64,000 nucleotides of DNA. Origin: an uncultured Verrucomicrobiae bacterium. GTDB taxonomy: Bacteria > Chlamydiota > Chlamydiia > Chlamydiales > Rhabdochlamydiaceae. The notes beneath the pieces were generated by a model that had not been told where the DNA came from, did no database searches, and was given only the letters and a program-made list of their open reading frames with translations. The stretch lies in the NCBI GenBank assembly GCA_963718565.1, contig OY970364.1, positions 544,001 to 608,000 of the forward strand, written 5' to 3'. Positions 11,827-13,326 of the stretch are shown in pieces; the stretch's first letter is position 1; each line of letters starts with the position of its first letter. Made by a program: the position numbers and the translations under genes.

Positions 11827-13326
11827 TCAAAGAAATAATTCTGTGAAAGGGCGAATTTTTTGTTCAAGCTCCTCCCATTCCTGTTCAGCAATGCTCCCTT
11901 GCACAATTCCTGTTCCTGCAAACAGATGAAGTGAGCGTTCTCGAATTAATGCAGAACGGATGGCGACATACAGATTTGCCCCCTCGGGGCTAATGATACC
12001 GATCGGTCCGCCATACCATCCGCGGTCAAAAGATTCCATTTGTCTGAGAAGCGGAACTGCTTTTTCCCGTGGGAAGCCTCCCAAAGCAGGGGTTGGATGC
12101 AAAGCCTCGATCAGTTCCTCGTCAAAAATACCCCTTCGCAAAACCACATTTAAGCGATTGTGGATATGCTGCACATGGGAGGCTTTTAAGATACTGTCCT
12201 GACCGCCCCATTTCATTTCTTTGGAAAGAGGGGAGATTGACATCTGTAAAAAATTTTTAACGATTTGGAACTCATAGCGATCTTTTGCGCTGTTGAATAG
12301 TTCTTGTTCGTACTGAAGGTCCTCATCTGAAGTTGTTCCGCGAGGCCGTGTGCCGGCCAGAACGTCTGCGCTTAAAGATTGACCAACCCTCTCGAAGAGT
12401 TTCTCTGGAGTTGCTCCTAAAAAGCAAAGCGAAGGGGAAAATTGGAAAGCAAAAATTGTCGCATGTTTGGCTTTGTCCATCAGTTGGTTTAAGCAAGACC
12501 AGATGGAAACAGGTTGTGAAAATTGCAACGTCGTCTTTCGAGCCAAAACGATTTTATTCAGTTCCCCAGAGGCGATTACCTTTAAAGCGGCATCGACATT
12601 TTCTTTCCAGAGGCTCAATGCCGGAGTTTCAAGACGGTCGATCAAGGAATAGGTTTTAGAAGGTCGCAAGCAAGAAGGTTCAATTTCAAAATGCTCACTA
12701 TCGAGCGAATTGCAGAACTCCTCGCCGCATAAAATCGCGCTTTTGGCATCTGTCGCCTTGGCGGCGGCTGCCTTCGGCCCCGGTTCGCTCCTTCGCTCAC
12801 CTGCTTTGCACTGCGAAGGTTCCCCGGACCTTCTCGTGTCTTCGCAGCCACTTATCCAAGTATGCTTTCGCCGCCGCCAACCGAACCCGCTGTGCGGGTT
12901 CTGGCAACAGGTGCCAAAATCATCGATTTTCTGCTGGCGAGGAGTTTTGCAATTCCCTCTATTCAACGAATAAAAGATTGCTTCCGTCTTTTCATCGCTC
13001 TGCGAGAGTTCGATTTGAGGTAGCCAAAAACAGGTTTTAGGGAAACCCTTCCAGGTCGTATCTTCGCGATGAGAGTTTTCCAAAAAACGGATTCCACCAT
13101 AAAGCCGCATTTCAAAGGGGGCTCCTCCGGAAAAACGCGGAATACGAGGAAAGGAAAGAAGGTTTCCCACGGCAGCGCGCGCGACCTGTCCATCACGATC
13201 CCTCCAAAAGACCTTGGGATAAAGAGGATTGTTTTCTAGCCAGCCTAAGGCATCAAGTGCGGGCAGAACTTGTTTGGACAGATTGATCCAATAGGTCCTC
13301 CCATCAATCTCAAACGGGAGGCACAT
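11827..13326 (-). CDS. menF: Isochorismate synthase carrying an 87-aa in-frame miniature-element insertion
   Basis: KIVLAR, GATPE, LAGT, LHPTPALGG, RGWYGG, AGTGIV motifs. Foreign segment RGNCKTPR...GEEFCNSLD is encoded by family A element 12702-12960. Confidence 0.93.
   Translation of the reverse strand: MCLPFEIDGRTYWINLSKQVLPALDALGWLENNPLYPKVFWRDRDGQVARAAVGNLLSFPRIPRFSGGAPFEMRLYGGIRFLENSHREDTTWKGFPKTCFWLPQIELSQSDEKTEAIFYSLNRGNCKTPRQQKIDDFGTCCQNPHSGFGWRRRKHTWISGCEDTRRSGEPSQCKAGERRSEPGPKAAAAKATDAKSAILCGEEFCNSLDSEHFEIEPSCLRPSKTYSLIDRLETPALSLWKENVDAALKVIASGELNKIVLARKTTLQFSQPVSIWSCLNQLMDKAKHATIFAFQFSPSLCFLGATPEKLFERVGQSLSADVLAGTRPRGTTSDEDLQYEQELFNSAKDRYEFQIVKNFLQMSISPLSKEMKWGGQDSILKASHVQHIHNRLNVVLRRGIFDEELIEALHPTPALGGFPREKAVPLLRQMESFDRGWYGGPIGIISPEGANLYVAIRSALIRERSLHLFAGTGIVQGSIAEQEWEELEQKIRPFTELFL
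12702..12960. mobile_element. Family A palindromic miniature element (259 bp) inside menF
   Basis: About 25-bp terminal inverted repeats (consensus AGAGGGAATTGCA(G/A)AACTCCTCGCC), AT on both flanks, nested internal stems; about 11 differences from the copy at 46572-46830. Confidence 0.92.

Follow-up and report, generated by a model that had tools for sequence, protein, structure and literature searches.

In Rickettsia, palindromic repeats inserted in frame into genes have been credited with supplying new protein sequence. To our knowledge, the mobilizer of these in-frame palindromes has never been pinned down. The elements concerned, named RPEs (Ogata et al. 2000), are described in PMC10969869, PMC2229807, PMC3733652, and PMC3767692 as palindromic and multicopy, lying both between genes and in frame within conserved Rickettsia genes. 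A guanylate kinase bearing an RPE is active, with changed substrate affinity (Abergel 2006, as summarized in PMC2229807), and Table 1 of PMC2229807 lists the RPE target duplication as "?". For different RPEs at one site, PMC3767692 leaves open the choice between hotspots and one old insertion. A further relevant class is the type II MITEs (ERIC/RU-1, YPAL/RU-2, and NEMIS), defined in PMC10969869 as elements of less than 500 bp with TIRs, a target duplication, a stable RNA hairpin, and no transposase; according to the same source they resemble autonomous IS in their TIRs only, and in-frame gene fusions have been reported for ERIC and YPAL. The string "Chlamyd" occurs 0 times in the accessible text of PMC10969869 and PMC2229807. 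Among publications on the Chlamydiae, PMC9723776 describes IS expansion in Rhabdochlamydia, with 0 occurrences of "MITE" in its accessible text, and PMC6189191 describes men gene clusters in environmental Chlamydiales. A search of the openly accessible literature found no account of chlamydial in-frame MITEs.

Here we describe a 257-bp element that lies in frame within menF, the isochorismate synthase gene, of an uncultured member of the Rhabdochlamydiaceae; the names of homologs likewise suggest that the host is an environmental chlamydia. In common with RPEs, it is a multicopy palindrome of an intracellular bacterium, with some copies intergenic and others fused in frame to conserved genes; at two in-frame sites, in menF and in a MutY-like gene, orthologs without the element exist. 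However, at 257 bp it exceeds the 105–146 bp of RPEs, it occurs in a different phylum, and its sequence is presumably different. Further differences are a clear 4-bp target duplication, a nameable autonomous IS with identical ends, and the presence in the menF linker of two elements with different ends ~12 codons apart. By analogy, the menF MITE appears to work like an RPE but is not one. With type II MITEs it shares its size class, TIRs, target duplication, hairpin, multicopy occurrence, lack of a transposase, and a likeness to an autonomous IS that is confined to the ends, and we class it with them; it differs in being GC-rich (58% in a 44% GC genome), in using a 4-bp target rather than TA, and in having 257- and 182-bp variants that are frame-neutral together with the duplication. 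The phenomenon of in-frame palindromes is already known; the matching transposase and the double hit in one linker are the additions made here. The reading that we favor, and consider likely, is that a non-coding 257-bp MITE occupies a variable linker of menF, that an IS1182/IS5-like DDE transposase likely placed it there, and that it is likely translated as a predicted disordered 87-residue loop on a likely active enzyme.

Results

The menF gene and the men operon

The window analyzed is a 64,000-nt stretch of contig OY970364.1 (assembly GCA_963718565.1), and all positions refer to it unless a genome position is given. An ORF free of stops extends over 11827–13389 on the minus strand and encodes 520 aa counted from TTG 13389; residues are numbered on this 520-aa ORF throughout. 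The likely start of menF is ATG 13326, with GGAG 8 nt upstream, giving a gene at 11827–13326 (minus strand); fewer than five residues precede the position of this ATG in 99 of 120 aligned rows. Counted from ATG 13326, MenF is 499 aa long; without the insert it would be 412 aa, the length given in a preliminary description of this DNA, and the closest congener protein has 414 aa. MenF scores 298 bits against TIGR00543, above the cut-off of 225, and misses the cut-off of the proteobacterial MenF equivalog (159 vs 488). Its assignment as isochorismate synthase draws on the TIGR00543 match, the MenF fold, an equivalent of Lys190 (K279), and the men operon.

That operon (menG, menF, menD, menH, menB, menA, menC, and menE; 5329–14044, minus strand) converges on menI (4962–5396, plus strand). 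All nine men genes are stop-free and match the expected Pfam families, which agrees with the earlier view of an intact pathway surrounding the insertion. A polar effect of a menF frameshift is plausible, menF being the second of eight co-oriented genes. Upstream of the operon, 14235–14943 is crowded with other repeat families (D1, D2, and D4). Three near-identical fragments of a gene for a GxxExxY protein (TIGR04256) lie among palindromic repeats at 14093–14245, 23690–23766, and 47500–47617, one of them just upstream of menG. Farther on, a 600-aa ORF at 15222–17024 combines a C-terminal NEL E3-ligase domain with a 96-nt tandem repeat and encodes a putative effector.

A 257-bp MITE in menF

The element, a member of family A, spans 12703–12959 on the minus strand, is read in the TIR-anchored frame, is 58% GC, and folds into one long hairpin with internal branches (−143 kcal/mol, z −11). 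On the coding strand, its 5′ TIR (12936–12959, minus strand) begins with 17 bp identical to the ends of an intact IS in a related genome (G142, below); 22 of 24 bases of the 3′ TIR (12703–12726, plus strand) pair with the other end, and the two changes are in the menF copy. The 4-bp target duplication reads AATA on the coding strand in its upstream copy (12960–12963) and GATA, with one mismatch, in its downstream copy (12699–12702). Reading the junctions codon by codon, we found that the gene has gained the 257-bp element plus one copy of the duplication, 261 bp in all, which adds 87 codons in frame (RGNCKTPR...EEFCNSLD, residues 144–230; 12700–12960, minus strand). At the empty site, MenF of the congener G004 (83% identical) matches residues 1–143 and 230–520 back to back, confirming the 87-aa insert first noticed from the sequence by itself. 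A large insert is absent at this site in 17 of 18 congeners, one of those a frameshifted gene; in G018 (locus L015, G018:C3), menF is split over two frames.

Three of the six frames of the menF copy are open: the TIR-anchored frame on both strands, as the preliminary description had it, and one more. The copy is ~98% identical to its siblings and carries 1–4 private changes within the 261 bp of the insertion, a count from which we judge the insertion to be young. The added peptide holds 7 Cys in 87 aa. Searches found no Pfam match to the peptide and no Rfam family match to the element, and the insert ends in Ser-Leu-Asp, not His-Asn, so that neither an intein nor a self-splicing intron describes it. 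No terminator-like or promoter-like site was found within the menF copy.

Copies of the element across the genome

BLAST with the menF element returned 140 loci across the 2.28-Mb genome, including partial and shared-module matches. Full-length copies number 46 (8 of 257 bp, 11 of 258–259 bp, 23 of 182 bp, and 4 of 181–187 bp), chimeric copy 423432 being left out. We collected 105 TIR pairs, which include some false pairs as well as pairs from other elements sharing these ends. The 4-bp duplication is exact in 64 of them and mismatched at one position in 21; the exact targets are 82% AT. Most 257-bp and 182-bp copies have three of six frames open. The window also holds a second full-length 257-bp copy (46573–46829, minus strand). 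It follows codon 25 of a SET-domain ORF (46497–47432, plus strand), in frame but oriented oppositely, and 46573–46830 is 96% identical to the menF copy. A partial copy of the short, 182-bp type lies at 31424–31545. Family-related sequence is present in 14 of 18 congeners.

The same TIR also bounds many unrelated internal sequences, from 20-bp end-only elements up to transposase deletion derivatives, and some TIR-bounded elements hold other IS nested inside. At G000:C1:1162648-1162963 and 2037357-2037540 (L063), two copies have the same kind of internal sequence but end differently: their termini (GAGCCACTTGCAAAAAT) match those of a related IS of 391 codons in G103. The same internal cargo thus appears to ride on two transposase specificities.

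Residence in reading frames varies with length. Copies in stop-free ORFs of at least 300 codons comprise 8 of 8 for the 257-bp form, 8 of 23 for the 182-bp form, and 0 of 15 for frame-shifting lengths; frame-neutral and frame-shifting copies (16/31 vs 0/15) differ with a Fisher p of 5.5e-4, calculated on copies that are not independent. For at least 2 of the 16 in-ORF copies, both of them N-terminal, the true start is probably located downstream of the copy. Host ORFs include those for an ABC ATPase, a MutY-like glycosylase, a pseudouridine synthase, the SET protein, and several exported proteins, and the site in the MutY-like gene is empty in five of five congeners checked. In-gene copies are stop-free. 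A sieve by both length and stops fits read-through of the element plus selection and argues against splicing or bypass.

All 8 full-length copies of the stop-free haplotype, which is 2 bp shorter, reach 257 bp via one of three different 1-bp gains, and no 256-bp copy was found among the full-length copies genome-wide. We speculate, while holding it to be decidedly unlikely, that the 257-bp haplotype is a gene-dwelling specialist of the IS1182/IS5-like MITE family, in which the 2-bp loss removed an internal stop and the 1-bp gains restored a codon-neutral length. All 8 copies of this form reside in long ORFs; the 182-bp form, no less frame-neutral, does so in 8 of 23 cases. If the speculation were true, the 257-bp elements, whose transposase can be named, would act as a natural system of scanning insertion, time and again finding tolerant segments such as the MenF linker and seeding new protein loops there.

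A candidate mobilizer

Pieces of transposase lie within other elements of this genome that have the ends of the MITE. A search with one of these pieces hit 405-codon open frames of G142, a same-family genome, 12 times. The G142 IS, of which 9 of the 12 copies were examined, is 1575 bp long, and the initial 17 bp of the MITE recur without change at both of its ends; its target duplications are an exact 4 bp in seven of the nine copies and 5 bp in one, with none in the remaining copy. IS1182-family elements have a single DUF772 + DDE ORF, TIRs, and a short duplication, and the G142 IS shows the same traits, its one ORF encoding a 390-aa protein with DUF772 and DDE_Tnp_1. The best NCBIfam match of this protein is IS1182 (NF033551), but at 86.7 bits against a cut-off of 270 we do not file it there; it falls under all IS5 cut-offs as well. 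This IS1182/IS5-like IS is likely the mobilizer of the menF MITE, and from the shared ends we infer mobilization in trans by a transposase of the G142 type.

The genome that carries the insertion (95% complete) yielded 8 transposase fragments, 61–84% identical and several of them beside or between the same TIRs, with no intact cognate transposase found. Because only fragments were found, the family may now be immobile in this genome. The central transposase fragment has no match in 18 congeners, the N-terminal fragment has matches in 4 of 150 other genomes of the order, and DUF4096 was not found in this genome. A transposase situated between two TIRs at genome positions 1624273–1626012 was considered as a partner and rejected: it belongs to a 1.3-kb IS, presumably ISAs1-like, that has ~12 copies elsewhere without these ends and is nested here in a TIR-sharing element.

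Linker position and predicted structure

The 20 residues around the insertion site form the least conserved window of MenF (0.18 against a mean of 0.57). Of 119 homologs, 118 have 34–68 aa between the PQIE motif and the Trp of helix 258–273; the exception, G008, has 112 aa, and the insert-bearing MenF has 138 aa. Profile alignment places the site just after residue 128 of E. coli MenF, where a strand ends. In the solved enzymes of E. coli, Yersinia, and Arabidopsis this segment has 8–14 more residues; the chlamydial linker is shorter and hypervariable, and in this genome it carries the 87 extra residues. Two homologs, P0035 and P0071, have linkers ~12–15 aa longer than usual, possibly from decayed inserts. 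Scans of metagenomes and genomes returned mostly distant isochorismate synthases (158 of 160 loci usable), among which three insertions of 25–26 aa all fall within the same linker, a weak observation at ~40% identity.

AlphaFold modeling (115 sequences) placed 381 residues at pLDDT ≥90 and left a low-confidence stretch at 156–223, with pLDDT <50, after strand 134–142. The insert is thus predicted to be disordered on an intact MenF fold. The best structural match of the model is E. coli MenF (Z 52.6, rmsd 2.2, 396 aligned); a single-sequence fold of the insert-free G004 MenF reached a pLDDT of 33.8. Every catalytic-site residue is C-terminal to the insert: the equivalents of E. coli K190, E240, E284, H318, A344, Y368, R387, E416, and K420 are K279, E329, E373, H408, A435, Y459, R478, E507, and K511, and all are kept. 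Apart from K190, we take these positions to have catalytic-site roles. The title of a reference names K190 as the catalytic base of E. coli MenF. The likeness to the E. coli enzyme (PDB 2EUA, 3BZM, and 3BZN) extends from fold and catalytic-site residues to the context of the men operon. The preliminary description placed the insert upstream of the chorismate-binding motifs, apparently in a linker, and this location is supported.

A second insertion is found in the same linker of G008, whose MenF is 48% identical. Its menF contains a hairpin of 182 bp (z −13.9) that ends in TATAC, targets TA, and adds 60 aa ~12 codons downstream of the site of the 257-bp MITE. This element is of another family, ~80% alike to many loci of the genome studied here and partly alike to six G008 loci. 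We regard the two insertions as independent because many closer homologs are empty. The linker holds 19 of the 256 target-like 4-mers of menF (~7%), and target preference therefore does not explain the clustering. At conserved columns, MenF of G008 is altered in four places, G498R among them, a count within the range of 0–9 for its divergence; its activity is less sure than that of the 499-aa MenF. G008 also has menD and menB, each cut by a contig end; its menG–menF pair (L053, G008:C62) stands apart from the remaining men genes.

Activity of the insert-bearing enzyme and alternative explanations

Several lines of evidence make it quite likely that the insert-bearing MenF is still active. Calculating dN/dS for MenF, as the preliminary description had advised, gave 0.13–0.16 against G004, in line with the 0.04–0.28 of the seven other men genes, but dS is ~0.7 and nearly all of it predates the insertion. 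Derived substitutions in menF number 26 in this lineage and 18 in that of G004 (21 vs 9 by a stricter count), and a like excess is seen across the other men genes (134 vs 90), which points to no menF-specific acceleration. No private change falls at any of the 86 columns of MenF that are at least 90% conserved. Under neutrality, the chance that menF would show neither a stop nor a conserved-site change is 0.45, 0.19, 0.08, and 0.03 at 0.4, 0.8, 1.2, and 1.6% divergence, respectively, and for seven pathway genes to remain free of any nonsense change the corresponding values are 0.40, 0.17, 0.07, and 0.02; because the insertion is young, the intact sequence is modest evidence. Neither a second isochorismate synthase nor futalosine genes were found in this genome, where aroC is intact. 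Its other chorismate-binding gene is TrpE-like and is followed by trpG- and trpD-like genes (51584–54650), so that tryptophan synthesis from chorismate looks retained. A 402-nt short-read contig (run X2, maybe the source sample) spans 12850–13251 without a difference and bridges the upstream junction. Short-read contigs, which drop variants, showed neither an empty menF allele nor, at 12813, a 257-bp haplotype.

Youth of the insertion can be turned against an active enzyme. MenF might have been killed or badly crippled, with the open frame and intact operon reflecting only recency in a pathway about to decay. An insert of 87 aa with 7 Cys is large, the mRNA hairpin is strong, and if the true divergence is 0.4–0.8%, neutral survival would still be 0.17–0.40. 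Yet the element sits in the least conserved window, where only ~7% of target-like sites lie, a second element reached the same linker independently, the 86 conserved columns are unchanged in a gene that is not specially accelerated, and no substitute enzyme or pathway was found; we therefore consider loss of MenF function unlikely. It is extremely improbable that the repeat was mis-joined into menF during assembly. High copy number would invite such an error, and the downstream junction is unbridged among the contigs listed, but the target duplication, the kept frame, the private substitutions of the menF copy, and the 402-nt contig across the upstream junction all speak against one.

Two other possibilities concern the hairpin itself. 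It could be removed or skipped at the RNA level, by splicing or by ribosome bypass between the duplicated flanks, so that MenF of normal length is made; the fold does bring both ends together, and other copies have, in the TIR-anchored frame, the same codon on either side as a result of the duplication. Precise removal would, however, tolerate any length and internal stops, whereas frame-shifting copies are missing from long ORFs (0/15) and in-gene copies are stop-free; with a mismatched duplication in menF and no Rfam family match, we give this route a very slim chance. Recruitment, meaning that MenF or expression of the men operon is tuned by the added peptide or by the RNA hairpin, has in its favor the long hairpins in the same linker of two lineages and the changes in mRNA stability that MITE hairpins cause elsewhere, as noted in PMC3733652. 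The two inserts have neither sequence nor peptide nor site in common, though, 17 of 18 congeners do without one, the menF copy remains ~98% identical to its siblings, and it contains no terminator-like or promoter-like site, all of which make recruitment very unlikely. By itself, the peptide is likely functionless.

Discussion

The favored reading, insertion of a MITE that is then tolerated as a translated loop, can be put as a sequence of steps. An IS1182/IS5-like DDE transposase acting in trans would have placed the 257-bp MITE in menF. Insertions could fall anywhere in the gene, because the target may be any AT-rich 4-mer and half of the frames are open; only frame-neutral, stop-free ones in tolerant segments would persist, so that selection acts as a sieve. 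Ribosomes would then translate through the hairpin to give the 87-residue loop, predicted to be disordered, and MenF with this loop would keep making isochorismate. As a counterpoint, a hairpin of −143 kcal/mol could slow translation.

Ends and target duplication together implicate one specific, intact transposase, so transposition could be assayed, and MenF offers an easy assay system for the cost of an 87-residue insert. Two different elements ~12 codons apart in one linker constitute a clean case of independent hits filtered by selection, an alternative that PMC3767692 leaves open for RPEs.
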